From the NCBI GenBank assembly GCA_034437735.1, contig DAOTTS010000102.1, forward strand, positions 16,333 through 80,332: DNA of 64,000 nucleotides. Direction: 5' to 3'. Under the pieces are notes generated by a model. The model saw nothing but the letters and a program-made list of their open reading frames with translations, was not told the origin of the DNA and ran no database searches. This document shows, in pieces, positions 10,919 to 42,979 of the stretch (position 1 is its first letter; every line of letters starts with the position of its first letter). This DNA comes from Anaerolineae bacterium. Lineage in GTDB: Bacteria > Chloroflexota > Anaerolineae > B4-G1 > SLSP01. Both the position numbers and the translations under genes were made by a program.

Positions 10919-10944
10919 ATCTAAGAAAAGGAGCGATTGACGTT

Positions 10945-27315: not shown

Positions 27316-29286
27316 TCAACGCTCGATAATCCCCGCCTCCACAAGCGCATCGCTGATGCGCTCAGGTGCATCGACCTGCACCGCGATCCACGCCACACCG
27401 GGATAGTGGGTCTCAAAGAAGGCCGCCAGATCCCCATCCCACCGCGCGGGGTTGATCGCAATCACCCGCCGCACTTTAAGATCGCCGATACCGGCATCGT
27501 CCACACTCCCCCCAACCGTAAACCGGTATCGCTGCCACGTCGCCTTCACCACAGCCTCGGCCCAGGCAACATCCGCATCCGGGGGGAGGAGGACATACGT
27601 ACGCGCATAGGGCTCGCGCGGCAATCCAAAAGGCCACGTCAACTCACCCGCGCGGCTCTCGGGAAACGGGGTGACGTCCGCCAACCGTTCGCTCAACAAC
27701 TCAGGACGGTCGATCTCCAAGGGTATATAGAGAGTCCCGGGATAGTGGGTCTCGAAAAACGCCGAGAGGTCGCCCGACCAGCCCTGGGGGTTGACGGCAA
27801 TCACCCGACGGAAATCCAAGGCCCCAATGCCGGCATCATCCGCACTGCCACCTATCGTCAACCGATGGGCATCCCAACTACCGCGCACGGCTGCAACCGC
27901 CCAGTCGGTGTTCAATTCGGGGGATAACAGCACATAGGTCCGCGCATACGATTCTCGCGGGGAGCCTCGCGGGGGCGCCACCAGATACGGTCGCGGGTTG
28001 AGCCAATCGAAGATGGCACGCATATGCACACCCGACACCCGCATCCCTAAATGAAGGTGCGGCCCGGTACTAAACCCTGTCGAACCCGCCCATCCCAACA
28101 GATCCCCCCGGGAGACCAAGCCTCCCACTTCGACCTCAATATCCGAAAGGTGAGCGTAGAGCAAGGTGATCTCCTCACCATCCGGACCATAGCTACGCAC
28201 CCGGAGATGCCGTCCGTACCCATCGCGATCCATTGCGACCTGGCTGACCGTCCCCGGAAGCGCCGCAAAAATGGGGGAGGTCTCAGGGGCCTCGAGATCC
28301 ACCCGCAGGTCGACGCCGTTATGCCCCCCTGTCATCCGGCAGCAATTATAGTAAACGCGTTGATTCTCTCCGAACCGCTGAGTATAGCGCCGGCACTGCG
28401 TAGGCCAGAGCATCCACATCTGACGAGGGTGCGGCAATGTGGGACGTTTCGCGACCTTGTCCACCAACGGCTTGGGGCGACCCTCGGGATCGAGCCAAGC
28501 CAAGGGTGCGTAATGCGGATCGTTGGAACGTAAAATCAAACTACAGACCGCAGTGATGCGATCGTACTGGGCCATCAGCGAGAAAAACTCCGCATACTGC
28601 GCGCCCCGAGCCTCAGAGGAAACCTGAGGGCTCACGTTAGCAAATTCAGTAATCGCAAACGTCTGATCCTTAAAGGGCTCCAGATAGATGCGTAGGAACC
28701 GCATGACCTCTTCGAACCCCCGCATCTCCTCAACCGTCCGCCAATAGAGGTGAAGAGCAGCCCAATCCGCAGCCCGCAAGGCATCCTGACAATCCTCGAG
28801 GAAGATGGTCTCATCGATGGGGGCAGAGGGAACCGGGCGCGCGAGGGCCGAGGGAGCAAGCGCCGGAAAGCCAACGCTCACCGCTTCCCCAAAGCGCGCC
28901 CTCAGCAATCGCTGCACTTCTAGGAACCAGTCCGCAAACGCTTTCCCATCCTGCCAAGACGTCCCGGCGCCGCGATCAGTCCGATTCGGCTCATCGTGAA
29001 CCTCCAGGCGCCCAACGTCTTGATGTAGAAAAGCATGAATGTCTTCCAAAAAATAGTCCACAAATGACAAGGGATCGACGGCCTCAGTCGACGATTGGGG
29101 CATCAACAATTGGAGAATAAACGCCCGGGCGCCAGCACCTCGCCACTTCGGAACATCGTCGCTGGAATTTACCCGGGCGCGGAGACGCACAAGCTGCAAC
29201 TTCGCAAGGTTAAACGCAGCAAGATCGGACTCCCATGCCGGCCCAACCGGCGCTTGAACGCCGGCCTTTGCGTAGGGAGCGCTCAC
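27316..29286 (-). CDS. Multidomain M23 metallopeptidase with a duplicated C-terminal module
   Basis: GHNGVDL (HxxxD), YAHL, GPHLHLG (HxH); two copies of a PRE.YARTYVLL...W...R.T.GGS.DDAGIG.L..RRVIA.NP..W.GDL.AFFETHYPG module. GTG start overlaps the amidase stop. Confidence 0.82.
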   Translation of the reverse strand: MSAPYAKAGVQAPVGPAWESDLAAFNLAKLQLVRLRARVNSSDDVPKWRGAGARAFILQLLMPQSSTEAVDPLSFVDYFLEDIHAFLHQDVGRLEVHDEPNRTDRGAGTSWQDGKAFADWFLEVQRLLRARFGEAVSVGFPALAPSALARPVPSAPIDETIFLEDCQDALRAADWAALHLYWRTVEEMRGFEEVMRFLRIYLEPFKDQTFAITEFANVSPQVSSEARGAQYAEFFSLMAQYDRITAVCSLILRSNDPHYAPLAWLDPEGRPKPLVDKVAKRPTLPHPRQMWMLWPTQCRRYTQRFGENQRVYYNCCRMTGGHNGVDLRVDLEAPETSPIFAALPGTVSQVAMDRDGYGRHLRVRSYGPDGEEITLLYAHLSDIEVEVGGLVSRGDLLGWAGSTGFSTGPHLHLGMRVSGVHMRAIFDWLNPRPYLVAPPRGSPRESYARTYVLLSPELNTDWAVAAVRGSWDAHRLTIGGSADDAGIGALDFRRVIAVNPQGWSGDLSAFFETHYPGTLYIPLEIDRPELLSERLADVTPFPESRAGELTWPFGLPREPYARTYVLLPPDADVAWAEAVVKATWQRYRFTVGGSVDDAGIGDLKVRRVIAINPARWDGDLAAFFETHYPGVAWIAVQVDAPERISDALVEAGIIER

Positions 29287-30053
29287 GGAGAGGACCCTTC
29301 CCCCTCAACGAAACAGATCAAGCCATTTACAATGCCTTCCACCACCAGGTCCGATCGGTCGGTGAGCAGCTCTCGATCCTCAAGCATAAAGCCGGCCTCG
29401 AGAATTGCGGCCGGCGTACTCGGGTCAATCTCATAATAGGCATGATACCGGGTCATATCATACGTGATGGTATAGCGATCAAAAGCCAAACCCGTCGCCT
29501 CATGATAATGTTTGCTGACACAATCAACGAGCTTATCCTCAGGTCCGGGAATATAGCTTGATTCGGCCCGCGCGATTTTAAAGCCAGAACGGCCCGGAAT
29601 ATTGCAGGAATCAGCGTGAACGGCTAAGAGGGCGTCTGCGCTGTATCCGTTGAGTTTCGCGTCAAACTCCTCCAGCAACTCCACCTGCCAACCCAGGTCC
29701 TTTAACCGTTCGACCACCTGGGTCGCGATATTCCGGTTGACGTCAACCTCCTGCAGGCCGTCCGGACATATGGCTCCGGAGTCGCTGCCCATATGCCCCG
29801 CGATGATACCGACGTGATTGACGTCAGGGGTGGAAGTCGCTATCTGAGGCGTCGGAGTAGGCACAGGGGTGTTCAGCAGAACGGTAATCGGGCCTTGATC
29901 TGTCTCCTCTTCCTCCTGCGCGATGGTATCCGACACAGAGATGATGGGAAACCCCAGGGGGACCGCAAAGGCCGCGACAAACGCGATGAAGATCAAGCCA
30001 CGAATCGTCCAGGCAATGGCCCAAGGATCGGGTTCGGGTGTCTTTTTTATCAT
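29283..30053 (-). CDS. Membrane-anchored N-acetylmuramoyl-L-alanine amidase (Amidase_3)
   Basis: N-terminal TM plus Pro/Thr linker; Zn and catalytic motifs IAGH, QEVDVN, VHAD, ILEAGF. Confidence 0.85.
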   Translation of the reverse strand: MIKKTPEPDPWAIAWTIRGLIFIAFVAAFAVPLGFPIISVSDTIAQEEEETDQGPITVLLNTPVPTPTPQIATSTPDVNHVGIIAGHMGSDSGAICPDGLQEVDVNRNIATQVVERLKDLGWQVELLEEFDAKLNGYSADALLAVHADSCNIPGRSGFKIARAESSYIPGPEDKLVDCVSKHYHEATGLAFDRYTITYDMTRYHAYYEIDPSTPAAILEAGFMLEDRELLTDRSDLVVEGIVNGLICFVEGEGSSP

Positions 30054-30140
30054 AGCTATCCAATCATAGCTAACGCACAGTCCAGAAGTGTAAAACCTTT
30101 ACAGATCAGAGTCTGTAAAAGCGTAACGTCCCGCGCCGAC

Positions 30141-30159
30141 GCCCCCGGGACGGGGGCTG
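30141..30159. repeat. Short intergenic palindrome, 18/19 identical to 47754-47772
   Basis: GCCCCCGGGACGGGGGCTG. Confidence 0.7.
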
Positions 30160-30197
30160 AAAGCGTTAGAGTAGGGAGGTTATGTCCTTACGAACCC

Positions 30198-30989
30198 TCA
30201 GCGCATCCGGCGCTTCCACTGCTCCTTTACCTCAATCCGATCCCAGTCATCACCGTAAAGGAGAAAATCCTGCACAAGGCGACTGAACTTACTGGGTTCA
30301 TCCAACATAGGATAGTGTTGAGAACGATCAAAAACCACCGCATAGACGTTATAATCCAAGCTCGAAAGCCGGTCCTCATCCGGCGGATGAATGAGAGGAT
30401 CCGCGCGTCCGCCCAACAGCAAAACCGGAACTTGCAGGAACACCAAAGACCCCAAGACATCCGTATTCATTGCCGAACGGACACTCTTCGCAACCGCTTC
30501 CCCATCGGTCTTACCCGCCTCGATCTTCACCTCCTCATAGTTACGAAGCGTCCGACGTCCTAGAATCGAGCGGGCCGGCTGCCCGCCCCCGCCGTAGGAA
30601 CTGAGAGGTCGCGCAATATCATCAGGCAGAAGCGGCGCACTGATTGACATCACCTGTTCAACCCGGTCAGGATTCTCCATCGCATATTGGATGGCTACGA
30701 TTCCGCCCAAGCCATGGCCGATAATCGGCACCCGCCCAATGCCCATCTGATCCATAAAGAGTTCAATCTGACCCACGTAGCCGTGGACGGAATAGCGGCT
30801 CGCAAGCTTGTCTGAGTCCCCAAAACCCCAGAAGTCCAGGGCATAGACCCGATACGACGAGGAAAGGTCCACCATCGTCGGCACCCAATACCGCCAGGAG
30901 CCGAGCCAGTCGTGCAAGAAAAGCAGCGGCCTCCCTCGGCCTAGGGCTTCATAATGGACCAGACTGCTTTCAAGGATAATAGCACTCAT
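30198..30989 (-). CDS. Alpha/beta hydrolase fold protein lacking the catalytic Ser (probable pseudo-enzyme)
   Basis: LHDWLGSWRYW and YALDFWGFGDS; nucleophile elbow reads GHGLGG instead of GxSxGG; His kept in QHYPMLDEP. Confidence 0.85.
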   Translation of the reverse strand: MSAIILESSLVHYEALGRGRPLLFLHDWLGSWRYWVPTMVDLSSSYRVYALDFWGFGDSDKLASRYSVHGYVGQIELFMDQMGIGRVPIIGHGLGGIVAIQYAMENPDRVEQVMSISAPLLPDDIARPLSSYGGGGQPARSILGRRTLRNYEEVKIEAGKTDGEAVAKSVRSAMNTDVLGSLVFLQVPVLLLGGRADPLIHPPDEDRLSSLDYNVYAVVFDRSQHYPMLDEPSKFSRLVQDFLLYGDDWDRIEVKEQWKRRMR

Positions 30990-31026
30990 CGGCTATCGTC
31001 ACTTTTCTCCAAAGATAATAGACAGC

Positions 31027-31404
31027 TCACGTTATATTCAATTCCTTCAAAATGCGATTCACCTTCTCGGTAAGATCATCCGGGGCAAAGGGCTTGAGAA
31101 TATAGTCCACAGCACCGACCTCCAACCCCTCCTGGATCTCGCTCTCCTGTCCTTTCGCCGAAAGGAAAATGACCGGGAGGTTTTTCGTCTCTTCCTTCTT
31201 CTTAAGTGCGGCGCAGGCCTGATAGCCCGTCATACGCGGCATACGCACATCCATCATAACCAAATCCGGCTTAATCTTCGAAGCTAGCTCAACCGCCTCG
31301 GCTCCATTCGCGGCCAGGGTCACATCGAAACCGGCAAACCGTAACGTAAACGCTATCAGTTCACGAATATCGCGCTCATCCTCTGCGACTAAGATTTTGA
31401 CCAT
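31027..31404 (-). CDS. Single-domain response regulator (REC)
   Basis: ILVAEDE, DLVMMDVRMP, FLSAK, YILKPF. Confidence 0.95.
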   Translation of the reverse strand: MVKILVAEDERDIRELIAFTLRFAGFDVTLAANGAEAVELASKIKPDLVMMDVRMPRMTGYQACAALKKKEETKNLPVIFLSAKGQESEIQEGLEVGAVDYILKPFAPDDLTEKVNRILKELNIT

Positions 31405-31406
31405 AA

Positions 31407-34400
31407 TTATAGCTCCTTGAGTGCATCGTTTTCGTGAATCAACGCTTCAATATCAGCCGCTAATTGATCCGGCGCGTAAGGCTTGGTCACAACACGCACG
31501 ACATCCAAAGCCTCAAGATCCTCTCTCGCCACATTGGTCATATTGGCCCCGGTGACCAAGACGGGGATATCCGTTATGGAGGCGCTACGCTTCAATGACT
31601 TCAGCATCTGATAACTGTTACCCTCTGCACTGAGCGTCATATCATAAACCAGCATCGCGGGCCGGAACTTTTGCACCAGCGGTAACACACGCTCGGGATG
31701 GGTCGTCGTGCGCACCCCAAACCCCTTGGACTGCAAGACCGTGCGTATCTGATTGAGCACGTCCTTATCGCGATCGACAACGACAATGCCCTCGGACGTA
31801 TCCAGCGACTGCTTGATCACAGCGAGAAGCTTTTCTGCATCCAACGGCTTATTAAGATAAGCGACCGCACCCAGATCCAATCCATGCGCACGGTCCAAGA
31901 CGACGGAGACAATGGCGACCGGGATATCGGCCGTCTCCGGCTCGCGTTTGAGAAGCTGCATCACTTCGAATCCATCCAAATCCGGGAGCCGGATATCTAA
32001 CGAGATAAAGTCCGGCAAACTTTCGCGGGCCATCCGAATCGCTTCATCCCCGGATCGAGCAAGGACGACCTCATATCCCTCAGATTCCAGCGTCACCCGC
32101 AAGAACTCACCGACCTCGGCATCATCCTCGACGACAAGGATAAGCGGTGCGGAGTCCTCCACGAGCAGGGGGGGAGGCATCCCCACTTCCTGAGTTGGGG
32201 CACCCTCAGCCAATGGGACTGAGAAGGTAAAGATACTCCCCGTTCCCAATACACTTTCCAGCCAAATCTCCCCCCCGTGCATCTGAATAAGTGACAGGGT
32301 AATCGCCAGACCCAAACCGGTACCCGACACCTCGTAAACGGCCGGATCATCCTCAACCCGGTAGAACCGATCAAAGATCTTCTGCTGATTCTCCGGCGCG
32401 ATCCCAATCCCCGTATCTTTGACGGCCACGTGCATCATCTCGTCACGGACATAGACGTACAAAGCAATCGTCCCGTCGATCGGCGTATACTTATAGGCAT
32501 TACTCACAATATTGGTGATGATCTGATTCAGGCGAGCCGGGTCAGCGTGTACTTCCGGCAGATTATCAGGCGCCACAATCTCAACAGCCTGGCCTTTATC
32601 CGCGATCTTCGGCATCATCAAATCCACAACCTGCTGGACGATGTCCATAAGGACAACCGGTTCTTGCTGCAGCTCAATACGACCCTGCTCAATGCGCGAG
32701 ATATCGAGAAGATCATTCACCAATATCGTCAAACGATCGGCGTTATTCTTCACCTTCTTCAGGAAGCTCAACTGCATTTCAGATATCTCACCGACCGCAC
32801 CGTTGACCAGCAGATCGACGTAGCCCACAATCGAGGTCATAGGCGTGCGCAGCTCGTGCGATACGGTCGACACAAATTCACTCTTCACACGGTCGGCCTC
32901 GATCTCCGATGTGATATCGCGGAAGACCGAAACGACCCCTAAGAATTCGCCGCCCTGAGAGACCACGGGAGAGACGTGAACACCCACGTAGCGACGCCCC
33001 ACCTCCAGTCGATGGGAGATAAAAGCATCAGCATCCTCATCCCCAGGGTTCTCTTTCCACGTTTCGATCTGCGACGACCACTCGCGGGTCTCATTCCCAT
33101 ACAGACTCAGGATCTCCTCCTGATGACGATCCAAGGCTTGATTGCGGTCAATCGAAAGAATCCGTTCTGCGGCCGCATTGAACATGATGACCCGACCATC
33201 CGTATCGGACACCATCACGCCGTCCGCAATACCCTCCAGGATCGCCTGGTTCTTCGCGGCATCAATGCGCTGCGACCGCAGCATCTCACCCAAGCGCTCC
33301 GCCTGTTCGCGGATCATCCGATAGAGGTCGGCGTTATTGAGCGCGTTGCCCAACTGAATCGCAGCGGCCTCAACCAACTGCATGTGCATCTCGTCGAAGA
33401 CGGAGGACGCTTCAGACTGCAACAGGATGACGCCCATCCCCTCACCCGCATTGCCCAGGATCGGCACGACCATCGTCGCGTGCATCCGACCTAAGGCATC
33501 CACCCGACAACGATCATCCGTCTGAGCATCCGGGAGGATAATCGCTTCCTTATGCTCCAGCACCCACCCTACCAGACTATCCCGTCGGTTAAAGGGCGTC
33601 GGCTCACCGCCGGGTGAGATCGGCTCTGAGTGACCAATGACCGCCCGATAGACAAGTTGCCCCGTATCATTGTCGAGCAAAATCACCGAACCTCGGTCAG
33701 CACGCACGGCTTGCTGCAATAACATCAACGCCTGACTGAGCACCCGATCCATATCCAAACTGGCCACCAATTCAGAGGCAATTCGGTAGAGCACCTCAGA
33801 GCGGTCGCGCTGCAAGCGCAGATGCTCCAGGGCCTCACCCAACTCCTGGGTGCGTTCGGCCACCCGGGCCTCCAGCTCTTCACTGAACCGCTTCACCTCA
33901 TCAAAGAGCCGCGCATTGTCCACAGCCACCGACACTTGATCCGCCAAAGCGGTGAGCGTGGCGACCTCCGCCGGGGTAAAATCCCCCTGGGCTCGGCGGT
34001 CGGCGGTCAAAATACCCACCGGACGCCTCTCAACGACCAAAGGCACCAGAATCGAAGAGCCGATCGGGACCCGACCCTCAATAAAACTCCCCTCTTCCCT
34101 GACGTCTTCAATGACCACCGGCATACCGGTATTGGCAACCTGTTGGATAGCGCCGCTATCCCTGCTGAGGTCCAAATCCTCCAATAAGTTCAGGGCATAT
34201 CCTGATGAAGCCAGCGGCACAAAATGATCCACCTCATCCTCACTGAGGAAAATCGTTGAATAGTCATATTCAAGGAGGTTAGTCACCGACTGGACAACCG
34301 TATTCAGCACCAGCGAGAGATCTAACTTCGTCGTGATCGAACGGTTGAGCTCGTTAAAGAGGCTGAGTGTGTTCACCTGCCGGCGCAGGTCCTCAACCAG

Positions 34401-36464
34401 GCGGTTATTCTCGATGGCCAACGCGACCTGAGAGGCAAAGAGCTCAACAATTTCTGCCACGCCAGCATCAGGGGCCAGGCCATCCCTCGGTCGATCGACG
34501 GACATCAACCCGAGTACCTGTCCCGTATTTCCGCGCAGGGGCACAAAGAAGAGATCCTCAGGATGCCACAGCTCCTCACCGATCGCCTCAGGGGACGCCC
34601 CAGAGGGAAAGACGTCCAATCCCTCACGGACATCCTTATGCTCTGCCGGAATATAATAGCACCGGCCAATCTGAAATTGTTCCTGACAGAGCTTTTCCAC
34701 ACGGGTCCAAGGGATCCGCACGTCCTTGCGTTCCTCGAATTCCTTCAAGGGAATACCGGCTACAGCGACGCGCTGTAACGCATCACCAGCCAACACACTG
34801 ATGAGGACAACCTCGAACCCGGAGCCCTCCTGGATGACATAAGCCGCGTCCAGCAGGATATCGCTCAGGGGGCGATCGGAGCGCATAATGCGCCCCATCT
34901 CCAAAAGCCTGGACATCTGCTCGATCCGCCGCCGCATCTGCTCGCCGCGATGCAACTGATCCTGATATCGCTGGGCGTTCCCCAACGCGATGGCGATATG
35001 CAGCGCCAGCCCCTCCAGGAGCGACTGCAGGGCAGGCGCAAACGTCTTTTCCCGAGGTGACTGCAGCAAAATCGCAGCCGACAAACGCTGCTCAAAAAAT
35101 ACCGGCGTGATCAGAAGACTACCCGATCCGGGCAGCGTCGTTTCAAACCGCTCACGATCCGCCATCGATCGAAGATCAATCATCTCTCGGGCAGCAAGCT
35201 CAGCCACCACATCCGTATTGGAAGTCCACGATTCAATCACCCTTCGCACCGACGCCAACGCCTCGTCACCATAGCCTTGATGAACTCGAACCCGGTTCCC
35301 CTCCTCGAAAAAGGTGAGGATACTGCCGGCCTCGGCGTCCCCAAACTGAACTGCTTCGCTTAACGCAAGGTCAAGGATCTGATCCAAAGCCACCGTCGAC
35401 GCAATCTCACGGGTCACCCGCTGAATCGACTCCATCGCATCCAACCGGCGACGAAGCTCGACATCGGCCTCGGTATAGCGCTGAGCGTTCTCAACCGCAA
35501 CGGCGACCTGATCGCCAAATAGCTGGGCCAAGTCTCGATCACGCTCACCGAACCGTCCCACTTGATCCGAGGCGATCTCCAACGTACCGATCAACTGATC
35601 CCGGACCTCTAAGGGTACGCCCAGATACGAGTGCGCCCAATGCCGCAGGGCATCACTCTTGGGTGCAACGCGCTCATACCCCGAGATATCATTAACCAAA
35701 AGCGGTGCGCGATTTTGAGCCAACCAGCCGGAGAGGCCTTCCTCCCGGTTATAGGTCGCTTCGAGACTCTCGCCCGCCTTATCTGCGGTTTCGGTCGAGC
35801 GGTAGGCACGACGGACCAAAAGGTCAAGATCCGAATCATAGAGCGTGATCTCCCCAGCATCATAGGGAATCAGCACGTAGACGGCATCCAGGACCTTTTG
35901 CAGGACTGTCTGAAGTTCGAGGGTCTCCCCAACGAGACGGGCCATCTGCTGCACCGTCCGCAGTTCATCAACCTGACGCGCCCGAATGGCATTCGCCCGT
36001 CGATATCGTGCAATGCCGGCGGCAGCAACCCGCCCGATCTCACAGAGCGCCATTCCTAAAGCTTGAGAGTCCGCATCAAACGCAGCATCGGCCCGCCCCA
36101 ACACCAGCCACCCGTTCTGTGCATACTCAGAGACAGGAAAAGCCAGAATCTCTCCCCACACCCCATCGGGGGAGGAAAGACTCAACGGTTGAAACTCGTC
36201 ACCCTGTGTCAAGCGGTCGACCGCCCACTGAGGCACGCCGGCTTCAGCGTTGGCAGGCAGCGAAGCCAGGACCTCTCCCGTATCCGCGGATACCCACGCC
36301 CCGACCTCCGCGCCCAACAAGCTGAACGCAGACGATAACGTCAGGGACCAGACTTCGTCCTCGTCCGACGCATCACTCAACCGCTGACCGACCTGGGTCA
36401 GGGCATCAAGGTCAGGCACATAGACGCCTTCTTCTAGCATTGTCTGATCATCCAACGCATTCAT
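31407..36464 (-). CDS. 1685-aa cytoplasmic hybrid histidine kinase: about 5-6 GAF, PAS, HisKA, HATPase, REC, REC-like
   Basis: Repeated GAF tails (S.L.VPL...IG.L...F...L..LA.Q.A.A.ENA); SHELRTP; NIVSNAYKY, DTGIGI, GTGLGL; two receiver-like C-terminal domains; no TM segment seen. Confidence 0.92.
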   Translation of the reverse strand: MNALDDQTMLEEGVYVPDLDALTQVGQRLSDASDEDEVWSLTLSSAFSLLGAEVGAWVSADTGEVLASLPANAEAGVPQWAVDRLTQGDEFQPLSLSSPDGVWGEILAFPVSEYAQNGWLVLGRADAAFDADSQALGMALCEIGRVAAAGIARYRRANAIRARQVDELRTVQQMARLVGETLELQTVLQKVLDAVYVLIPYDAGEITLYDSDLDLLVRRAYRSTETADKAGESLEATYNREEGLSGWLAQNRAPLLVNDISGYERVAPKSDALRHWAHSYLGVPLEVRDQLIGTLEIASDQVGRFGERDRDLAQLFGDQVAVAVENAQRYTEADVELRRRLDAMESIQRVTREIASTVALDQILDLALSEAVQFGDAEAGSILTFFEEGNRVRVHQGYGDEALASVRRVIESWTSNTDVVAELAAREMIDLRSMADRERFETTLPGSGSLLITPVFFEQRLSAAILLQSPREKTFAPALQSLLEGLALHIAIALGNAQRYQDQLHRGEQMRRRIEQMSRLLEMGRIMRSDRPLSDILLDAAYVIQEGSGFEVVLISVLAGDALQRVAVAGIPLKEFEERKDVRIPWTRVEKLCQEQFQIGRCYYIPAEHKDVREGLDVFPSGASPEAIGEELWHPEDLFFVPLRGNTGQVLGLMSVDRPRDGLAPDAGVAEIVELFASQVALAIENNRLVEDLRRQVNTLSLFNELNRSITTKLDLSLVLNTVVQSVTNLLEYDYSTIFLSEDEVDHFVPLASSGYALNLLEDLDLSRDSGAIQQVANTGMPVVIEDVREEGSFIEGRVPIGSSILVPLVVERRPVGILTADRRAQGDFTPAEVATLTALADQVSVAVDNARLFDEVKRFSEELEARVAERTQELGEALEHLRLQRDRSEVLYRIASELVASLDMDRVLSQALMLLQQAVRADRGSVILLDNDTGQLVYRAVIGHSEPISPGGEPTPFNRRDSLVGWVLEHKEAIILPDAQTDDRCRVDALGRMHATMVVPILGNAGEGMGVILLQSEASSVFDEMHMQLVEAAAIQLGNALNNADLYRMIREQAERLGEMLRSQRIDAAKNQAILEGIADGVMVSDTDGRVIMFNAAAERILSIDRNQALDRHQEEILSLYGNETREWSSQIETWKENPGDEDADAFISHRLEVGRRYVGVHVSPVVSQGGEFLGVVSVFRDITSEIEADRVKSEFVSTVSHELRTPMTSIVGYVDLLVNGAVGEISEMQLSFLKKVKNNADRLTILVNDLLDISRIEQGRIELQQEPVVLMDIVQQVVDLMMPKIADKGQAVEIVAPDNLPEVHADPARLNQIITNIVSNAYKYTPIDGTIALYVYVRDEMMHVAVKDTGIGIAPENQQKIFDRFYRVEDDPAVYEVSGTGLGLAITLSLIQMHGGEIWLESVLGTGSIFTFSVPLAEGAPTQEVGMPPPLLVEDSAPLILVVEDDAEVGEFLRVTLESEGYEVVLARSGDEAIRMARESLPDFISLDIRLPDLDGFEVMQLLKREPETADIPVAIVSVVLDRAHGLDLGAVAYLNKPLDAEKLLAVIKQSLDTSEGIVVVDRDKDVLNQIRTVLQSKGFGVRTTTHPERVLPLVQKFRPAMLVYDMTLSAEGNSYQMLKSLKRSASITDIPVLVTGANMTNVAREDLEALDVVRVVTKPYAPDQLAADIEALIHENDALKEL

Positions 36465-36498
36465 AAACTCTCAAGAGGTTGTAAATCCATTCCTCACG

Positions 36499-37392
36499 TC
36501 AATCGGCAGCATCCCGGCGCCGGGCTTCCGCAGCATCCTCCGTGATCTCCCGAATGTCCGTGAAAGGGCCATCTTCAGCCGTCAAAATCCCAACCATCAA
36601 ACTCATCAACGGAACCTGAATTTCGTTGCCCTGATCATCCTTCGTCACGACGTAGCCCTGCATCCGCGATTTGAAATCATAATGCGTGCCAACATTCGCG
36701 TTAAATCGCTCAACAATTTTCTCTTTCAGCTCTCCAACCAAGGCTTGACGGGTGATCACGATGAAATCGTCACCGCTAATGTGGCCCACAAAATCCTCAG
36801 GGGTTCCGTGCTCGTCGATGATCTGATTGAGCAACATGCCGGTGAAACGCAGCACCTCTTCACCGGCCACAAAACCGTACACCTCGTTAAAGACATCCAA
36901 TCCTTTGATACCAATATAGAGAATGCCCCAGTCGGCCCGGCCCATGAGCTCGCGGAGCTGCTGCTCAATCAAACGACCGCTGGCGAGCCCGGTACTGGGG
37001 CTCGTCAACGCAGCGACCTCGGCACTTTTGATCGTATTGCGCACGCGCAGGCGGAGCTCTTCCACGTCAAAGGGTTTGACGATGTAATCATCGGCCCCAA
37101 GCTCCAAGCCATGGATCTTATCACTGCGCTCATCCTTCTGGGTCAGGAAGATGATCGGGATATGACTGGTACGCAGATTCGTCCGCAATCGACGGCAGAC
37201 CTCATACCCATCGATGTCCGGAAGCATAATATCCAGAACGATGACGTTGGGCATCTTCTGACGGGTCAAGTCAAGGGCTTCCTGCCCACGGGAGGCAACA
37301 TACACTTCGTATCCCTGAGACTTGAAGTAAACGTCAAGCATATTGGAGATATCAAAATCATCTTCAACTACGAGGATGCGGCCTTCACTCAT
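36499..37392 (-). CDS. Response regulator with a degenerate GGDEF output domain
   Basis: REC intact (VEDD, LDIMLP, KPF); GGDEF site reads SGDDF and the metal-binding DID/DxFK stretch reads GIKGLD. Confidence 0.85.
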   Translation of the reverse strand: MSEGRILVVEDDFDISNMLDVYFKSQGYEVYVASRGQEALDLTRQKMPNVIVLDIMLPDIDGYEVCRRLRTNLRTSHIPIIFLTQKDERSDKIHGLELGADDYIVKPFDVEELRLRVRNTIKSAEVAALTSPSTGLASGRLIEQQLRELMGRADWGILYIGIKGLDVFNEVYGFVAGEEVLRFTGMLLNQIIDEHGTPEDFVGHISGDDFIVITRQALVGELKEKIVERFNANVGTHYDFKSRMQGYVVTKDDQGNEIQVPLMSLMVGILTAEDGPFTDIREITEDAAEARRRDAAD

Positions 37393-38482
37393 CCCTACCT
37401 CCCCCATAAACGCGTGCTCGCACTTGTTGAATCACAGCATCATCCAGCCGGTGTTCAAAACTCCGCAGCGCAGCCAATTCAAAGCCGTGCTCCGTCGCCC
37501 GCTCATCAATCCATTGTACCTGATCCAGCGATACCTGCTTCCCGATAGAAAAGTCCTCAGAGACGTGCTCAAATGCTAACGTCATCGTCTCTGCCAAACA
37601 CCCATAGGTCAAGTCTGGCGGCAGTCCATAATCGAATCCAAAATCCACCTCACCCGGAACCCGAACCAACCCACCATCGATGACCAACACGTCCTCCCGC
37701 GCGCGCCCCACCTCAAGCGAAACGTCCCTGGGCCGGGAGACATCACACACAATCGAACCGGGACGCAACATCTCAGGGCTGACCAAATCGCCTCCCGAGC
37801 TGGTAACCGTGACCACCACCTCAGCCTGTCGAATATCCCCCACGTCCGTGGAGGTCTCCAGATCATCCGTGGACGGGCCTCCGTCCGCACTCACCCGAAC
37901 CCTGGTACGCTCCAACCGGGCCTCGTCCCTGGCGATCAATAGCATACGCCCGACATACGGCACAAGCAGCTTAGTAACTGCCAATCCGATAGCGCCTGAA
38001 GCCCCGACGACAGCAACGGTAGCCTCCGCCAGACGGATATTCATCTTGCAGGCAGCATCGCGCACTGCCTGAACCGAAACGGCTGCCGTATAGCTGTCAC
38101 CGGTGGTCACCGGAATATTCAGGGCCTTGGCAATCGTCCGCCCACCGTCCCCGACGACCGAGGTGTAGGCACCCAATCCCATCATGTGCGCGCCCAGCTC
38201 CTCAGCCAGATGGCCCGCCGCGATAATCTTCCGATAGACCTCCTGGGTCGGCAAGCTCAGCATACGCCTCGGCGTATAAGGGACAGCAATCAACCAGCCC
38301 TCAATCGACTCTCCGGTCAGGGCCGAACGCGCACCCTCCACGTGTGAGAGCTCAAGCGGCGGCCAAAAACGCGAGAAAAAATCAATAGCTTTTTCTGGCA
38401 AAAATCGACCCAGCAATGGATATTTACGTGCTACGTCACGCTTCGTGTCGATCGGGTGAATGATAAACGCAAATGAACTCAC
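37385..38482 (-). CDS. Fatty acyl-ACP reductase-like NAD(P)-dependent oxidoreductase
   Basis: FAFIIHP, LGAYTSVVG, TTGDSYTA, VAVVGASGAIG, DVSRPRDV, and GCLAETM at the position of the cyanobacterial AAR catalytic Cys. Confidence 0.75.
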   Translation of the reverse strand: MSSFAFIIHPIDTKRDVARKYPLLGRFLPEKAIDFFSRFWPPLELSHVEGARSALTGESIEGWLIAVPYTPRRMLSLPTQEVYRKIIAAGHLAEELGAHMMGLGAYTSVVGDGGRTIAKALNIPVTTGDSYTAAVSVQAVRDAACKMNIRLAEATVAVVGASGAIGLAVTKLLVPYVGRMLLIARDEARLERTRVRVSADGGPSTDDLETSTDVGDIRQAEVVVTVTSSGGDLVSPEMLRPGSIVCDVSRPRDVSLEVGRAREDVLVIDGGLVRVPGEVDFGFDYGLPPDLTYGCLAETMTLAFEHVSEDFSIGKQVSLDQVQWIDERATEHGFELAALRSFEHRLDDAVIQQVRARVYGGGRDE

Positions 38483-38548
38483 GTGCTACTTTATTGTATC
38501 CTCTCTACCAAACTCTGCCACCCTAACCACAGACTACGCGCCACCATT

Positions 38549-39808
38549 TCAGTCACGAGGGTATCGACGGGGATGAATGCTCTCCCCGTTTTCGAGCTTC
38601 AGGTGATCGCTATCCTCCCACTGCACATTTTTGCGGATAACGCGGCGATCCTTGGAGGCAAACAACACCACATCCGAGTCGATCATACGGGCGGGGAAGA
38701 CAATCATCCCCGAACCAATACGGACGTTATGCCCCACCGCACTTCCCAGCGCCGTCATCCCCGTATCCTCCAGCCCGCCCCGGAAATGGGAGCGGATCGG
38801 TTTGTCCACCAGGTTGAAGTCCGTAAAGGTATTGCCGGCTCCAATAAAGGAGCCCCGTCCCACAACGCACATTTGGAGACACGAATTCTGAGCCACCATA
38901 CAGTCTTCCATCAAGACCGTACGGTAGAGCGCAGCCCCAAACGGCAGGAACGACCCATCCCCGACGACGCTGAGCATCAGCTGACAGCCCTGGTCAATGG
39001 TCACGTTATCCCCAATATAGCAATTCCCGATCACCGTGCCAGGGCCGATGCTCACATTGTTACCGATGAAAGCCGGGCCCTGAATCGTGGCCGTCGGATC
39101 GATACTGCAATTGCGCCCCACCTCAACCAGCGCGGAGGTCTGCAGGATCTGCTTGCGCTCCAGCATGCCACGCCACAAGAGTTTAAGGTTCAGCAGGAAA
39201 TCCTCCTCAGCCTCCTGCTCGAAGCGCGCCCCAATGGCAAAGATGCCGAAGTCAATGTTGGCGTGCAAAATCTGCAGCCAGTGCTCAATGGAGAGAAACG
39301 GCTTGGTGGGCAAATCGTACACCAGATCCCCATATTGATTTGACATATGGGTGGGGATATGATAAAAACCTACTTCACGCGCCTCGGTATCCATCACCAA
39401 CGGACGGACCACCGGATCGATACCATAGGGATAGTACCACAAATCGGCCACGTAATAAGGCCCATCCCGCCGGATGCCGCGCTGTAGATACCGTGCCTGT
39501 CCCCTGATCGCCGGATCGTCCCGCTCAAACGCGACCCGGCACGCCTTGCCAGAGGCCCTGGCGCGGTCAAGAAAGTCCTCAATGAAACGGGCATCGAAGT
39601 AGAGGTTATCCCGGTACACCAGCATCTCCTCACGATCCGCCGAGATCTGGGAGAGAGAATCGACCTCATACTCTTCGGTGGTGTAAGGCGCCAGGATATC
39701 CCGCTGGTGGAGCCACAACGGCTTCGTCAGCACGCTAAGGGCTCGCGCCGGCTCATTGAAGGGCGGAATTTTCCGCCGGTCTCTCAGGATAACCTTACGC
39801 ATACCCAC
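38549..39808 (-). CDS. Uncharacterised protein with a nucleotidyltransferase-like N-terminus and a left-handed beta-helix (hexapeptide repeats)
   Basis: C-terminal VGRNCSIDPTATIQGPAFIGNNVSIGPGTVIGNCYIGDNVTI...VGHNVRIG repeats; the GlmU-type GxGTR motif is not visible. Confidence 0.7.
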   Translation of the reverse strand: MGMRKVILRDRRKIPPFNEPARALSVLTKPLWLHQRDILAPYTTEEYEVDSLSQISADREEMLVYRDNLYFDARFIEDFLDRARASGKACRVAFERDDPAIRGQARYLQRGIRRDGPYYVADLWYYPYGIDPVVRPLVMDTEAREVGFYHIPTHMSNQYGDLVYDLPTKPFLSIEHWLQILHANIDFGIFAIGARFEQEAEEDFLLNLKLLWRGMLERKQILQTSALVEVGRNCSIDPTATIQGPAFIGNNVSIGPGTVIGNCYIGDNVTIDQGCQLMLSVVGDGSFLPFGAALYRTVLMEDCMVAQNSCLQMCVVGRGSFIGAGNTFTDFNLVDKPIRSHFRGGLEDTGMTALGSAVGHNVRIGSGMIVFPARMIDSDVVLFASKDRRVIRKNVQWEDSDHLKLENGESIHPRRYPRD

Positions 39809-39819
39809 TCCAGACTAAA

Positions 39820-40458
39820 TCAATCAAGAGGCACCTTGCCCACGGACATCGTGCAGGCCGCATCTCCGCACGCGATACAGGACGTCTCCTCAACCTGAAG
39901 GCGCGTCCCCTGACTGAACCAAAACAATACCTCATCCAATAAACCTACGATAAAGCTACAAGCCGGCGTCGTCGTTTGAGGACGCCAACAGAAGCCACAA
40001 CGATCCAGCACAAAGAAGAAATTCTCCTCATCCGAGTCCAACGTCACGTGCTGCCCACTATAGCGATTGAAGATTTCGGCCATAACCTCCAGCCCGAGGC
40101 GCACGCGAAACCCCATCGGCAGGAGCCGCAGCGCGAAATCCGCAAATCCAATACTCCGCTCAAATCCCGCGATCCAATACTGAAAGCTCGCCTGCCCGGC
40201 CTGACGCATCAGACGCCGCCCCTCGCGGATCCCGTGGATCGATTCAACCGCCTCAGAGAGACGACCCACTTCCTCAAATGACAAGCCAGCCTCAAAGTCA
40301 GCGGGGGGTAAGACCTCGGCCAAGTCCGTCAAACGGGCCGTTGCCAGCACCGCATCCCATGCATTCTCATCCACGACATCCCGAATCGCAAGCAGAATAA
40401 TGCGGGAAATGCGGTTGGGAAACCCGTCGTATCTGCCTTCGCTCCGATCCTCAGTCAC
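39820..40458 (-). CDS. V4R (4-vinyl reductase) domain protein
   Basis: C-terminal RCGFCW...PACSFIVGLLDE...VEETSCIACGDAACTM V4R Cys pattern; N-terminal HNOB-like segment. Confidence 0.85.
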   Translation of the reverse strand: MTEDRSEGRYDGFPNRISRIILLAIRDVVDENAWDAVLATARLTDLAEVLPPADFEAGLSFEEVGRLSEAVESIHGIREGRRLMRQAGQASFQYWIAGFERSIGFADFALRLLPMGFRVRLGLEVMAEIFNRYSGQHVTLDSDEENFFFVLDRCGFCWRPQTTTPACSFIVGLLDEVLFWFSQGTRLQVEETSCIACGDAACTMSVGKVPLD

Positions 40459-41243
40459 ACGTCTGTCAGAAAATCACGAATCGTCTGGTGAAAATGATCG
40501 GTCTCATCGAGCATCGGGAAATGACCGGAGTCGGCGAAGTAGTGGACCGTATGCTCAGACACGCCTTGCCGGAGGATCTCACCTTGTTTGGGATCCACAA
40601 TATTGTCCTTACGTCCATAAATACCCATCGCAGGAATCTGGAAATCAGGCAATTCAGGGCGCAAATCGGTCTCACGGAGATCTCGAATACTCCGCGAAAA
40701 AGACTCCATCGTCGTACGTGAGAGGTCCTTCCTCAACATGTCATACAAGGTACGCCAATCTTGCGCATACGTAATCGAGAGGAGCCGGATGAGCGTGGGC
40801 AAGAGTCCGGGAACTGCATAGAGCAACTGAGCGACCGTCTGATAACCAGACACTTTCAGGAGCAGGCTCAACCCAGCCCCCGTAATCGGGGAACCCACGA
40901 CGGCCACCTTCGATACCCGTTGAGGGTGTTGCACCGTCAAGGCTAATGACACCGTGCCGCCCATGGAGTGGCCCATCACTCGGGCCGAACGGAGCCCCAT
41001 CCGATCCATAAACTGCTCCACCATCTCAACGTATTCGTCGACGGAAAAGACGCCCTGCTTCGCGGACTCTCCAAACCCCCAGAAATCAAGGGCATACGTC
41101 TTGTAGCCATAGTCGGCAAGATACTCCATCGTGGAGAACCAATAGCTCCACGACCCCAGCCAACAGTGTAAGAGTACGACCGGTTTACCCCGGCCAAACG
41201 TCTCGTAGTGTACAATCCCTTGATTGGTGACAATCGAACTCAT
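40455..41243 (-). CDS. Alpha/beta hydrolase with intact triad motifs; paralogue of 30198-30989
   Basis: LHCWLGSWSYW, YALDFWGFGES, GHSMGG (nucleophile), GRKDNIV (acid), SGHFPMLDE (His). Confidence 0.9.
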   Translation of the reverse strand: MSSIVTNQGIVHYETFGRGKPVVLLHCWLGSWSYWFSTMEYLADYGYKTYALDFWGFGESAKQGVFSVDEYVEMVEQFMDRMGLRSARVMGHSMGGTVSLALTVQHPQRVSKVAVVGSPITGAGLSLLLKVSGYQTVAQLLYAVPGLLPTLIRLLSITYAQDWRTLYDMLRKDLSRTTMESFSRSIRDLRETDLRPELPDFQIPAMGIYGRKDNIVDPKQGEILRQGVSEHTVHYFADSGHFPMLDETDHFHQTIRDFLTDV

Positions 41244-41366
41244 ACGTTACCCGCATATCTTGTCAACCACACTAACACAAAGCCATACCTAGATTCCCTG
41301 TATTCATCCTACCACAAGACGAACGTACATGACGAAAAGAAGCATATCATTTCAGTTAAAAAGCGG

Positions 41367-41900
41367 TTAACCCTCCTCCATCAGCGCAAGGATCGAATAG
41401 AGGAGCTCCAACAGGACGTCCTTAACCGTCTCCTTGTCCTGAGCGACACACGGGACCACTTTGATCTCGGAATCCACCCGCAGGACGATGCGCATATCAT
41501 CCGCCGGCCACGCATCCTCCAGATCTTGCTTGTTGGCGGCGACGATGTAGGGTACCGGTGAGTAGCTGCGGAAGGTATCGAGAATACGGCGGGCCTCACG
41601 GAAGGTCTCGGGACGGGTGCTGTCAACCAGCACGACGAACCCTAACATACCCTCCGACAGAATCTCCCACATGAAATTGAACCGCTTCTGCCCAGGTGTA
41701 CCAAAAAGATAGAGGATCAACTCCTCATCAACCGTAATACGACCGAAATCCATCGCGACCGTGGTCTGATTCTTAATACGTTCAGAGGTTCGCGAGATTT
41801 TTCGCTCCGTGGACACGACGTCGATCTCACTGATAGCTTGGATAAATTCCGTTTTACCCGATGAAAAAGGGCCAGTTACAACGATCTTCAATGTCTGCAT
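41367..41900 (-). CDS. Small GTPase of the MglA / Streptomyces conservon CvnD-like family
   Basis: KIVVTGPFSSGKT (G1), TTVAMDFGRI (G2), LYLFGTPGQKRF (G3), ANKQD (G4). Confidence 0.9.
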   Translation of the reverse strand: MQTLKIVVTGPFSSGKTEFIQAISEIDVVSTERKISRTSERIKNQTTVAMDFGRITVDEELILYLFGTPGQKRFNFMWEILSEGMLGFVVLVDSTRPETFREARRILDTFRSYSPVPYIVAANKQDLEDAWPADDMRIVLRVDSEIKVVPCVAQDKETVKDVLLELLYSILALMEEG

Positions 41901-41903
41901 AGA

Positions 41904-42767
41904 TTACAACTCCCGGATACGGCGAATTAATTTATTGATAATGCCACGCTTGACCGCAGGACGATGCATCTCGGGTTTTGCCTGCTGTTGTTCAGATGCC
42001 CTGGCACGCTCCTCCTGCTCACCTTGGGGCGTTGCACTACCGGGTACGCTGCGGGGGCGATGAACGACTTCGACCAGCCCGGCTTGTAGCAGACCGTAAA
42101 CGATCTTACGAATCTGAAGCTCGTCCATATTATTATAATGCGCAATCTGACGGATCGAGTTACTGGGATTGATAAAGGAGATGACCCGCCACTCTTCCAC
42201 ACTAAGATTAATATCACGCAAAGGGGTCGTCGGGCGTTCGGCGAATTTGAGTGAAATATCGAGATCCGGCAGCTCATCCTGGAGCAGCTCCCACTCCTTA
42301 ACCCGCCGGCTCCCCTCCATAATCACATTTTCCAAGGCGATCGCCGCGGTCACCCGACCGCGAATGGGCAAGGTAGACGGCTCGAATCGGAAGCTTCCCT
42401 GTCGCCACGAAAAGATCTGATAAACCAGACTCAAGAAATGCTCGCGGACATTGCGCGCCACCTGCTGCTGTTCGAGACGACCGCTCGTGATGAGCACCTG
42501 CGCGATATCCCGGTCCGAGCGTCCGGGCATATTTTTCCGAATCGTCTGCACGTGCTCCGGCGTGAAGATACCGGCCCGTTGAAGAATCACCGGGAGATAC
42601 TCCTCGATGTCTTCAACCGACGCATAGATCAGCTTTCCCTCGCGAAAAGAAAGGAAAGCCTCTTTCTCCCCACCCTCCAAATAGAGCGTCCCGGTCTTCC
42701 GGGCCAGGTTGATGAGATTCAGCAATTGGGTGATCCCAAAATCCTCAAGCTTGCCTTTTAACGCCAT
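41904..42767 (-). CDS. DUF4388 (PATAN-like) domain protein with a probable C-terminal winged helix
   Basis: LKGKLEDFGITQLLNLINLARKTGTLYL...REGKLIYA and W..GSFRFEP...LENVIMEG.RR..EW. Confidence 0.82.
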   Translation of the reverse strand: MALKGKLEDFGITQLLNLINLARKTGTLYLEGGEKEAFLSFREGKLIYASVEDIEEYLPVILQRAGIFTPEHVQTIRKNMPGRSDRDIAQVLITSGRLEQQQVARNVREHFLSLVYQIFSWRQGSFRFEPSTLPIRGRVTAAIALENVIMEGSRRVKEWELLQDELPDLDISLKFAERPTTPLRDINLSVEEWRVISFINPSNSIRQIAHYNNMDELQIRKIVYGLLQAGLVEVVHRPRSVPGSATPQGEQEERARASEQQQAKPEMHRPAVKRGIINKLIRRIREL

Positions 42768-42979
42768 ATGCGACCATCCTTAATCTTTCGATCCTACGGT
42801 TAAGGTTGAGAACGAATCAAGATCCACGCCTGGGCCGACCCGACGTCCGTACGCTCAACACAACCCAGCCGTATTCAACGGTTCTCCTATACAATTGCGT
42901 CCCATTATAGGGAACTTAAGCCGTTCAGCAAATAAGTCCTATTTTCCGCTTGCATTCATCGATTATCGGGGGATAACCC

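Follow-up and report, generated by a model that had tools for sequence, protein, structure and literature searches.

A Candidate Signaling Role for a Serine-Less Alpha/Beta-Hydrolase-Fold Protein Encoded Beside a Receiver Domain in Anaerolineae

We consider two alpha/beta-hydrolase-fold (ABH) proteins, ABH1 and ABH2, that are encoded in one signaling gene cluster of an Anaerolineae bacterium. The DNA is a stretch of 64,000 nucleotides (assembly GCA_034437735.1, contig DAOTTS010000102.1, positions 16,333 to 80,332 of the forward strand), which we call the window and number from its first letter. ABH1 appears to be an ordinary serine hydrolase of the esterase, lactonase or thioesterase type. ABH2, encoded after a hybrid kinase and a single-domain receiver (REC) protein, has a glycine at the nucleophile position and represents a serine-less family that is class-wide in Anaerolineae and coupled to a REC/hybrid-kinase module. 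The loss of its serine is old and the gene is as tightly constrained as ABH1, and ABH2 is probably no longer an ordinary hydrolase. The features on which the argument rests are the following.

40455-41243, minus strand: ABH1, 262 amino acids, alpha/beta-hydrolase with GHSMGG and the triad Ser93-Asp213-His241 (Pfam Abhydrolase_1, E 2.4e-33)
40965-40967, minus strand: codon TCC of ABH1 Ser93
30198-30989, minus strand: ABH2, 263 amino acids, alpha/beta-hydrolase fold without the nucleophile (GHGLGG), with Asp197, His225 and the lid motif KTD kept (Pfam Abhydrolase_1, E 5.4e-21)
30711-30713, minus strand: codon GGC of ABH2 Gly93, the nucleophile-elbow position
30201-30227, minus strand: C-terminal tail of ABH2, K255-R263 (KEQWKRRMR), which ABH1 does not have

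A hydrolase-fold paralogue without its nucleophile

A preliminary description of the window took the two genes to be paralogues with several motifs in common, and read GHSMGG in the first and GHGLGG, with the histidine kept, in the second. The open reading frames at these coordinates bear out both statements. The motifs VHYE..GRG.P...LH.WLGSW.YW..TM, YALDFWGFG.S.K and H[FY]PMLDE are common to the two proteins, which align end to end with 34% identity over 262 columns (BLASTP, E 9e-50); their orthologue profiles align over 242 columns with a probability of 100% and an E value of 7.5e-83 (hhalign), and the two elbow sequences are confirmed from the codons TCC and GGC. Both proteins belong to the fold superfamily, with Abhydrolase_1 scores of 116 bits for ABH1 and 76 bits for ABH2 against a cut-off of 25.8.

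The next question is whether either protein has a closer relative elsewhere. When ABH2 is used to search 1.84 billion representative proteins, 138 are found at an E value of 1e-30 or below, and because the roughly 140 best matches are of the ABH2 type or the ABH1 type, apart from a few fusions, ABH1 and ABH2 are each other's nearest family. Their duplication appears to be ancient. Among the matches there is no curated Pfam or NCBIfam family specific to ABH2, the NCBIfam matches being generic and sub-threshold (AcoC, PHA depolymerase, PcaD, BioH). Matches by sequence to the PDB and by fold (Foldseek) are to generic esterases, lactonases and carbon-carbon (C-C) hydrolases for both paralogues, and they do not separate the relatives of ABH2 from those of ABH1. 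The best ABH2 matches are CumD, epoxide hydrolases and esterases. By Foldseek both proteins lie among small esterases, enol-lactonase, acyl-homoserine-lactone (AHL) lactonase and C-C hydrolases with template-modeling (TM) scores of 0.8-0.85, and the best structural matches of ABH1 are an enol-lactonase, an aryl esterase and C-C hydrolases at a TM score of about 0.85. One of ten cluster representatives is annotated, generically, as a "pimeloyl-ACP methyl ester carboxylesterase".

The catalytic residues are compared in close orthologues. For ABH2 this set is the window protein with its 120 best homologues (49-92% identity), whose named assemblies are all from Anaerolineae or Thermoflexia; almost all Anaerolineae in these searches are metagenome-assembled genomes. 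ABH1 orthologues keep the full serine-hydrolase triad, with Ser93 in 120/120, Asp213 in 121/121 and His241 in 121/121. The ABH2 orthologues lack it: the elbow residue is glycine in 106, alanine in 13, serine in one and threonine in one, so that Gly or Ala stands in 119/121, while His225 is kept in 121/121 and Asp197 in 115/121 (95%). The preliminary description had asked for an orthologue alignment to see whether the change is fixed and under purifying selection, and had named a majority of serine-bearing orthologues as the finding that would tell against a protein without a nucleophile; serine occurs in 1/121, and the selection estimates given below agree.

To look beyond the close set we search the GTDB species, each represented by a single genome, for the peptide pattern W[LVI]G[ST]WRYW. 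There are at least 600 matches, and of 600 checked by tblastn 579 are confirmed, which places the family in at least 579 Chloroflexota species. The 80 best loci are titled Chloroflexota (Anaerolineae, Anaerolineales, Thermoflexales, Caldilineaceae), with one exception titled "uncultured bacterium". Together with three others they make the 83 loci, mostly from species-level genomes, in which the elbow is read; their 84 ABH2 reading frames have Gly in 46, Ala in 27, Ser in eight and Thr in one, and two are unreadable. In a clade of ABH2 proteins with an inserted lid, described below, the counts are G 101, A 4, S 3 and D 1. On a neighbor-joining tree of ABH1 and ABH2, which is indicative only, the five elbow residues (S, A, G, T, D) turn up at scattered places in the tail-bearing ABH2 clade, where the Asp and His persist, and the ABH1 clade is uniformly Ser-Asp-His. 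Because G, A, S, T and D replace one another at the elbow with the rest conserved, covalent catalysis is excluded as the conserved function of the ABH2 family. The position requires a small residue, which need not carry a hydroxyl, and with Gly or Ala at the elbow in most lineages ABH2 cannot form an acyl-enzyme through a serine. The term "dead copy", used for ABH2 in the preliminary description, therefore suits acyl-enzyme hydrolysis but is too strong for catalysis at large, given a His-Asp pair that is invariant or nearly so.

The codons and the rates of substitution bear on the loss of the serine. ABH2 orthologues use all four glycine codons and all four alanine codons, and serine occurs only as TCN, so a path from Ser (TCN) through Ala (GCN) to Gly (GGN) fits. 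The ratio of nonsynonymous to synonymous substitution rates (dN/dS), computed against the window's two closest relatives and approximate since dS exceeds 1, is 0.029-0.039 for ABH2 and 0.027-0.050 for ABH1. While a change from Ser (AGC) to Gly (GGC) could in principle take one base, there is a negligible chance that the glycine comes from faulty sequencing or that it marks a redundant duplicate which began to decay recently in this strain: Gly or Ala occurs in about 98% of the close orthologues and in hundreds of species, all synonymous glycine codons are in use, the serine codons of the family are two steps away from GGN, the dN/dS is about 0.03, and the frame is full-length with a fold predicted at high confidence. 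Error and decay are refuted by the orthologues, the codon diversity and the dN/dS.

In the AlphaFold2 model, the core of ABH2 is canonical for the ABH fold and its lid, residues 127-184, is helical, at a mean predicted local distance difference test (pLDDT) score of 94.5 and a predicted TM score of 0.93. The model of ABH1 has a pLDDT of 86, and its lid is longer and less confident than that of ABH2. Invariant or near-invariant positions of the ABH2 family are the MSA start, H12-Y-E, W28, W32 and W35, D52, L94, G95 and P119, and further D162 and A165 in the lid (the KTD motif), D197, H225-x-P-M-L and the terminal K-x-x-W-x-R-R-x-R; the former active-site region is the most conserved part of the protein. 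The W-x-R-R-x-R tail is invariant in the 121 close orthologues, its W258, R260 and R261 are invariant also across a wider alignment of 93 sequences, and it is present in 117/117 members of the insert-bearing clade. Residues 256-263 have a pLDDT below 50 and are predicted to be disordered, so in the model this invariant basic tail behaves like a short linear docking motif. A new member of the family can be recognized by the MSA start, WLGSWRYW, GH[GA]LG[GA], the lid KTD and the terminal W-x-R-R-x-R.

Several variants of this architecture occur. A large ABH2 subclade (P0275, P0424, P0450 and about 115 relatives, and the loci L084 and L085) has a low-complexity lid insertion of about 70-240 residues, rich in Pro, Ala, Ser and Glu and apparently disordered, and keeps all remaining marks of the family; the kinase associated with ABH2 in L085 has 2749 amino acids. 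In L014 there are tandem ABH2 copies (10001-10771 and 10814-11566), of which the second also has GHGLGG and is without the W-x-R-R-x-R tail. Distant relatives at 34-39% identity are fused to effector domains, as TIR-ABH (P0303, P0331), ABH-TIR (P0333, P0345) and ABH-CHAT (P0309). These fusions have no W-x-R-R-x-R tail, and the elbow is glycine (GHGLGA or GHGFGA) in 4/5, the fifth being unreadable; their ABH domain may be a non-hydrolytic module, perhaps with a sensor role of its own, on a conflict-system effector.

Nothing in the literature searched, whether on hydrolases with V4R or PATAN neighbors, on DUF4388 and GTPases in Chloroflexi, on pseudoenzymes with response regulators or on Ser-to-Gly elbows, describes the ABH2 family or its cluster. 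ABH proteins that are nucleophile-free or non-catalytic are well known in eukaryotes, for example neuroligins, CGI-58, NDRG and GID1. Further eukaryotic examples of non-catalytic ABH proteins are DPP6 and DPP10 (PMC4350108).

The gene cluster and its two modules

Every gene that spans 27.3-44.8 kilobases of the window lies on the minus strand. The order of transcription is RecN, PATAN, GTPase, ABH1, V4R, hexapeptide, reductase, REC-GGDEF-like, kinase, REC, ABH2, Amidase_3 and M23 peptidase. The genes around ABH1 and ABH2 are listed here in this order.

42980-44800, minus strand: RecN, which precedes the PATAN gene
41904-42767, minus strand: DUF4388/PATAN (PatA_N) protein, 287 amino acids, which opens the conserved cluster (Pfam PF14332, E 9.3e-28)
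41367-41900, minus strand: small Ras-superfamily GTPase (ATP_bind_1/Ras/Arf), 177 amino acids (Pfam PF03029, 7.2e-20; Ras, 2.1e-9)
39820-40458, minus strand: V4R-domain protein, 212 amino acids (Pfam V4R, 2.2e-6, below the family cut-off; weak NCBIfam matches to MsvR and BchJ)
38549-39808, minus strand: hexapeptide (left-handed beta-helix, LbH) protein, 419 amino acids (Pfam Hexapep, 2.8e-13; LbH_EIF2B, 5.1e-14)
37385-38482, minus strand: acyl-thioester reductase-like protein of the AAR or PigE N-terminal type, 365 amino acids (NCBIfam and PDB matches)
36499-37407, minus strand: response regulator with a degenerate GGDEF-like domain, SGDDF (Pfam Response_reg, 3.3e-30; GGDEF, 1.9e-8)
31407-36464, minus strand: hybrid sensor kinase, 1685 amino acids, with four GAF stretches, PAS, HisKA, HATPase_c and two REC domains (Pfam)
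31027-31404, minus strand: single-domain REC protein, 125 amino acids (Pfam Response_reg, 8e-32)

The genes are closely packed. From PATAN to ABH2 the coordinates give spacings that range from an overlap of 23 nucleotides to a gap of 123; the GTPase gene starts 3 nucleotides past the PATAN gene, the V4R start overlaps the ABH1 stop by 4, and the single-domain REC gene starts 2 nucleotides after the kinase gene and ends 37 before ABH2. A scan of 29000-43300 for promoters and terminators gives counts no higher than the shuffled expectation, with zero terminator-like sites in the intergenic gaps, and this lack weakly suggests that the genes from PATAN to ABH2 form a single transcript. There are also long plus-strand reading frames (for example 29793-30563, 36682-37548 and 38483-39343) that run antisense to well-supported minus-strand genes and are most likely spurious. 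The remaining window is ordinary chromosome, with single-stranded DNA-binding protein (SSB), phosphoglucomutase, ATP-sulfurylase/APS kinase, HMG-CoA reductase, RNase Y and one tRNA-Thr. The claim of the preliminary description that the two hydrolase paralogues bracket the operon holds only roughly: the PATAN and GTPase genes precede ABH1, and do so in related genomes too, the PATAN gene having an equivalent position in L001, L004, L009, L018, L019, L021, L023, L075, L078 and L088. The same description placed ABH2 directly after the kinase and REC genes, and this is so in the window, with its 37-nucleotide gap, and nearly universal in the relatives.

A REC homologue lies within 400 nucleotides upstream of ABH2 (median 43) in 79/81 loci; in the two exceptions there is a partial REC (L011) or the REC-GGDEF-like gene abuts ABH2 (L078). 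When the window proteins are searched for by tblastn, the order PATAN, GTPase, ABH1, V4R, hexapeptide, (reductase), REC-GGDEF-like, kinase, REC, ABH2 recurs in the relatives of the window, in Thermoflexia and in many Anaerolineales. The hybrid kinase upstream of REC-ABH2 is conserved in most loci. Amidase_3 and M23 genes downstream of ABH2 are common to close relatives only, and the reductase gene is missing in L001, L004, L009, L018, L019, L021 and L023. In the two insert-bearing-clade loci that we examine, L084 and L085, kinase-REC-ABH2 stands without an upstream ABH1 module, and of the two only L085 gives a match for the REC-GGDEF-like gene. The core unit thus comprises REC-GGDEF-like, GAF-PAS hybrid kinase, REC and ABH2, with ABH2 as the last gene. 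A second module, made up of ABH1, V4R, the hexapeptide protein and the reductase, is frequently linked to it and occurs in some lineages only. Since ABH2 can stand with REC and kinase and no adjacent ABH1 module, an obligatory enzyme/receptor pair of ABH1 and ABH2 is weakened, and the assignment of ABH2 to the phosphorelay is strengthened.

Two variations in gene content are noted in passing. In L018 and L021 the kinase is missing from the cluster and REC-GGDEF-like, REC and ABH2 are kept; in these genomes the kinase gene may lie at another site, or the kinase may be replaceable. In Caldilineae-type loci (L055, L057, L059, L060, L063, L066, L070, L073, L074) the V4R gene directly follows ABH2, at about 60-200 nucleotides, in place of its translational coupling with ABH1 in the window, so V4R pairs with whichever hydrolase-fold gene adjoins it.

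Constraint differs among the products of the cluster. By the same comparison, with ratios that are again approximate, the GTPase gene is the most constrained (dN/dS 0.008) and the hexapeptide gene is next (0.02); the values are 0.02-0.04 for REC-GGDEF-like, 0.03 for REC, 0.08-0.10 for the kinase, 0.09-0.11 for the reductase and 0.11-0.15 for V4R. The PAS domain of the kinase (residues 1072-1187) stands directly before HisKA. The GGDEF match of the REC-GGDEF-like protein covers only positions 5-101 of 161 in the Pfam model, and the motif is SGDDF in the window and mostly GGDDF or GGDNF in 60 orthologues, which departs from the GG[DE]EF of diguanylate cyclases; the protein is a second candidate pseudoenzyme in the operon.

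The reductase-like protein matches PDB 4ppm (E 1.9e-38 over residues 3-354) and AAR 6jzq (E 1.9e-23). Its NCBIfam matches to the PigE N-terminal region (7.6e-63, score 213 against a cut-off of 850) and to AcACP_reductase (4.7e-31, 108 against 450) fall below the equivalog cut-offs, so it counts as a relative and not as an equivalog. The cysteine in its YGCLAETM aligns with that of GCMAET in PigE, and we take it, by analogy with AAR, to be the catalytic one; the gene hints at an aldehyde-forming step. PDB matches of the hexapeptide protein are to GlmU and LpxD over its LbH part only, with no assignment for the N-terminal region of about 200 amino acids. Its top Pfam match is the LbH domain of eIF2B-epsilon, which scores 52.6 bits where the cut-off is 54. 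The cluster also has a small GTPase, and eIF2B serves as an exchange factor for a GTPase.

Possible roles of ABH2

We tentatively favor a role for ABH2 as a non-hydrolytic signaling or binding component of the phosphorelay. The old active-site pocket, in which His225, Asp197, Leu94, Pro119 and the lid KTD motif are the fixed elements, would hold a small molecule without turnover, and the W-x-R-R-x-R tail would dock ABH2 on the adjacent REC or kinase. Single-domain REC proteins generally signal through protein-protein contact, and the Arg-rich tail of ABH2 and an acidic receiver would be a reasonable docking pair. That the REC-ABH2 pairing persists without the kinase (in L018 and L021) is counted for a dedicated signaling partner, and the TIR and CHAT fusions with a glycine elbow support the signaling reading as well. 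A small acyl-derived molecule is plausible since the cluster encodes an acyl-thioester reductase, a hexapeptide transferase-like protein and V4R.

Several points weigh against this role. The near-total conservation of His and Asp over a deep divergence is what a general-base enzyme would be expected to have, and the conservation signature of ABH2 resembles that of the HOD/AqdC dioxygenases. The gene order leaves ABH2 either as a sensor upstream of the kinase or as a REC target downstream of it. The lids of the two paralogues differ, so their pockets are not identical: in the profile alignment the ABH1 lid has about 18 extra hydrophobic residues, and its mean hydropathy is +0.13 against -0.18 for ABH2, a modest difference of little weight. 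The preliminary description saw in the two proteins an enzyme/receptor pair, one member turning over an ester or thioester signal and the other binding it, in the manner of plant hydrolase-fold receptors. Its paralogy, its one intact and one serine-less copy and its connection to the kinase and REC genes are borne out, so that the proposal is supported in part; a link between the substrate of ABH1 and the ligand of ABH2 is one that we only infer. Extended further, this reading would make the ten genes a self-contained make-and-sense system specific to Anaerolineae. An acyl-derived aldehyde or ester would be produced or trimmed by ABH1 together with the hexapeptide protein and the reductase, and V4R would carry it to ABH2, a receptor that does not hydrolyse it and that would signal its occupancy to the phosphorelay by docking its tail on the single-domain REC. 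We consider this extension unlikely. If true, a single hydrolase fold would, by duplication, have supplied both enzyme and receptor in bacteria, an independent parallel to the plant receptors.

Alternatively, ABH2 may be a nucleophile-free enzyme in which the His225-Asp197 pair acts as a general base in a non-hydrolytic or water-mediated reaction, such as a decarboxylation, an elimination, an isomerization or a cofactor-free oxygenation, and phosphorylated REC might control its activity. We regard this as possible but doubtful. The invariant His and roughly 95% conserved Asp, beside an elbow at which S, A, G, T or D can stand, are as such an enzyme would have them, and the near-invariant W28, L94, P119, D162, A165, D197, H225, P227 and M228 lie near the active site in the standard ABH topology. 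The acyl-thioester reductase and the intact hydrolase of the cluster make a metabolic role conceivable. Tomato MKS1, an Ala-His-Asn ABH protein that decarboxylates beta-keto acids, counts for it. HOD and AqdC rely on His-Asp alone and have natural Ser-to-Ala replacements (PMC10548524). But neither HOD/AqdC nor MKS1 is among the top sequence or fold matches of ABH2, which travels with REC and kinase and has no metabolic-looking genes adjacent in L084 and L085. A large subclade tolerates the long low-complexity lid insertion, which is unusual for a tuned active site, and DPP10, a true pseudoenzyme, keeps His-Asp as well. By analogy, an invariant His-Asp pair with a variable elbow would fit a nucleophile-independent enzyme of the HOD/AqdC kind and a pseudoenzyme of the DPP10 kind equally.

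It is also conceivable, though we judge it improbable, that ABH2 is a ligand-free scaffold or adaptor that presents its tail and a conserved surface to REC or kinase. The invariant disordered basic tail, the obligatory adjacency of REC and the tolerance of long disordered lid insertions agree with an adaptor, and neuroligins and NDRG proteins are non-catalytic ABH adaptors, as are DPP6 and DPP10 (the latter two in PMC4350108). The residues that are best conserved, though, are former active-site elements (His, Asp, H92, L94, the lid KTD), with no obvious separate surface, and one would not expect a scaffold to have kept His and Asp over such a divergence. Highly improbable is a working hydrolase that uses another residue as nucleophile, or Asp or Ser where present. 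A minority of the family does have Ser, Thr or Asp at the elbow, and S31 and T161/D162 are conserved candidates, but most members have Gly or Ala with no compensating family-wide change, and a covalent mechanism would be incompatible with the G/A/S/T/D drift. S31, moreover, is just as well conserved in ABH1, which has Ser93 for its nucleophile, and is thus a shared structural residue.

What the answer would mean depends on which of these holds. As a receptor or a REC-controlled effector, ABH2 would be a new type of accessory component for two-component signaling, and it would form with ABH1 a natural enzyme/non-enzyme paralogue pair in which the repurposing of the hydrolase fold can be studied. 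As a His-Asp enzyme it would bring a new nucleophile-free ABH chemistry under phosphorelay control. The analysis also flags a large uncharacterized signaling cluster in Anaerolineae, with PATAN, GTPase, V4R, degenerate GGDEF and GAF kinase components.

Comparison with known systems

The first part of the cluster, in which PATAN is paired with a small Ras-superfamily GTPase, is like the conservon and MglA-type modules. This pairing is known for some members of MglA groups 1 and 5, including Chloroflexi, and the GTPase survey that reports it mentions no hydrolase or V4R neighbors (PMC4316618). The window cluster shows no Roadblock/MglB gene.

For the role proposed here for ABH2, the plant receptors D14/KAI2 and GID1 are analogies of function only, in that an ABH fold perceives a small molecule and triggers protein-protein signaling. 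In D14 and KAI2 the Ser-His-Asp triad is intact and the ligand is hydrolysed, while GID1 belongs to the hormone-sensitive-lipase branch and is without the His. ABH2 is unlike both in keeping His and Asp and having lost Ser, and it is no closer to them than to generic esterases: KAI2-like and D14 structures are ordinary fold matches (rank 47) for both ABH1 and ABH2.

In DPP10 the serine has become Gly and in DPP6 Asp, with His-Asp still hydrogen-bonded and the elbow geometry intact in what are pure binding subunits (PMC4350108). Both of these elbow alternatives, G and D, also occur in the ABH2 family. Unlike ABH2, the two are eukaryotic membrane S9B proteins with a beta-propeller, have no two-component link and show no close sequence similarity to it. 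In HOD and AqdC the nucleophile is dispensable, His-Asp is the essential general base, and the elbow varies naturally between Ser and Ala (PMC10548524). The conserved His-Asp and the dispensable nucleophile are shared with ABH2 and support the statement that it could work like them, not membership, there being no HOD/AqdC-specific similarity among its top sequence and fold matches. They differ from ABH2 also in genomic setting, which is one of quinolone degradation instead of REC and kinase genes, and a glycine elbow is not reported for them.

RsbQ with the PAS domain of RsbP is the closest functional analogue of the ABH2 system. RsbQ is, to our knowledge, the best-studied bacterial signaling hydrolase, and it is a working enzyme that keeps an intact triad. 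The pair is described from Bacillus subtilis together with 45 homologous pairs whose outputs are a histidine kinase, GGDEF or a phosphatase, and in the model for it the hydrolase supplies an activity that the PAS domain needs, with direct contact between the partners proposed (PMC3183031). Neither the 60 listed of the 197 PDB sequence matches of ABH2 nor its 50 listed fold matches include RsbQ, and membership of ABH2 with RsbQ, HOD or GID1 is unsupported by the sequence and fold matches listed. RsbQ and ABH2 are alike as stand-alone ABH-fold proteins encoded close to a PAS-containing signaling protein. They differ in that the constant neighbor of ABH2 is a single-domain REC gene and not a PAS gene, the kinase with its PAS domain being two genes upstream, and in that RsbQ has no W-x-R-R-x-R tail, whereas ABH2 has the tail and no nucleophile.

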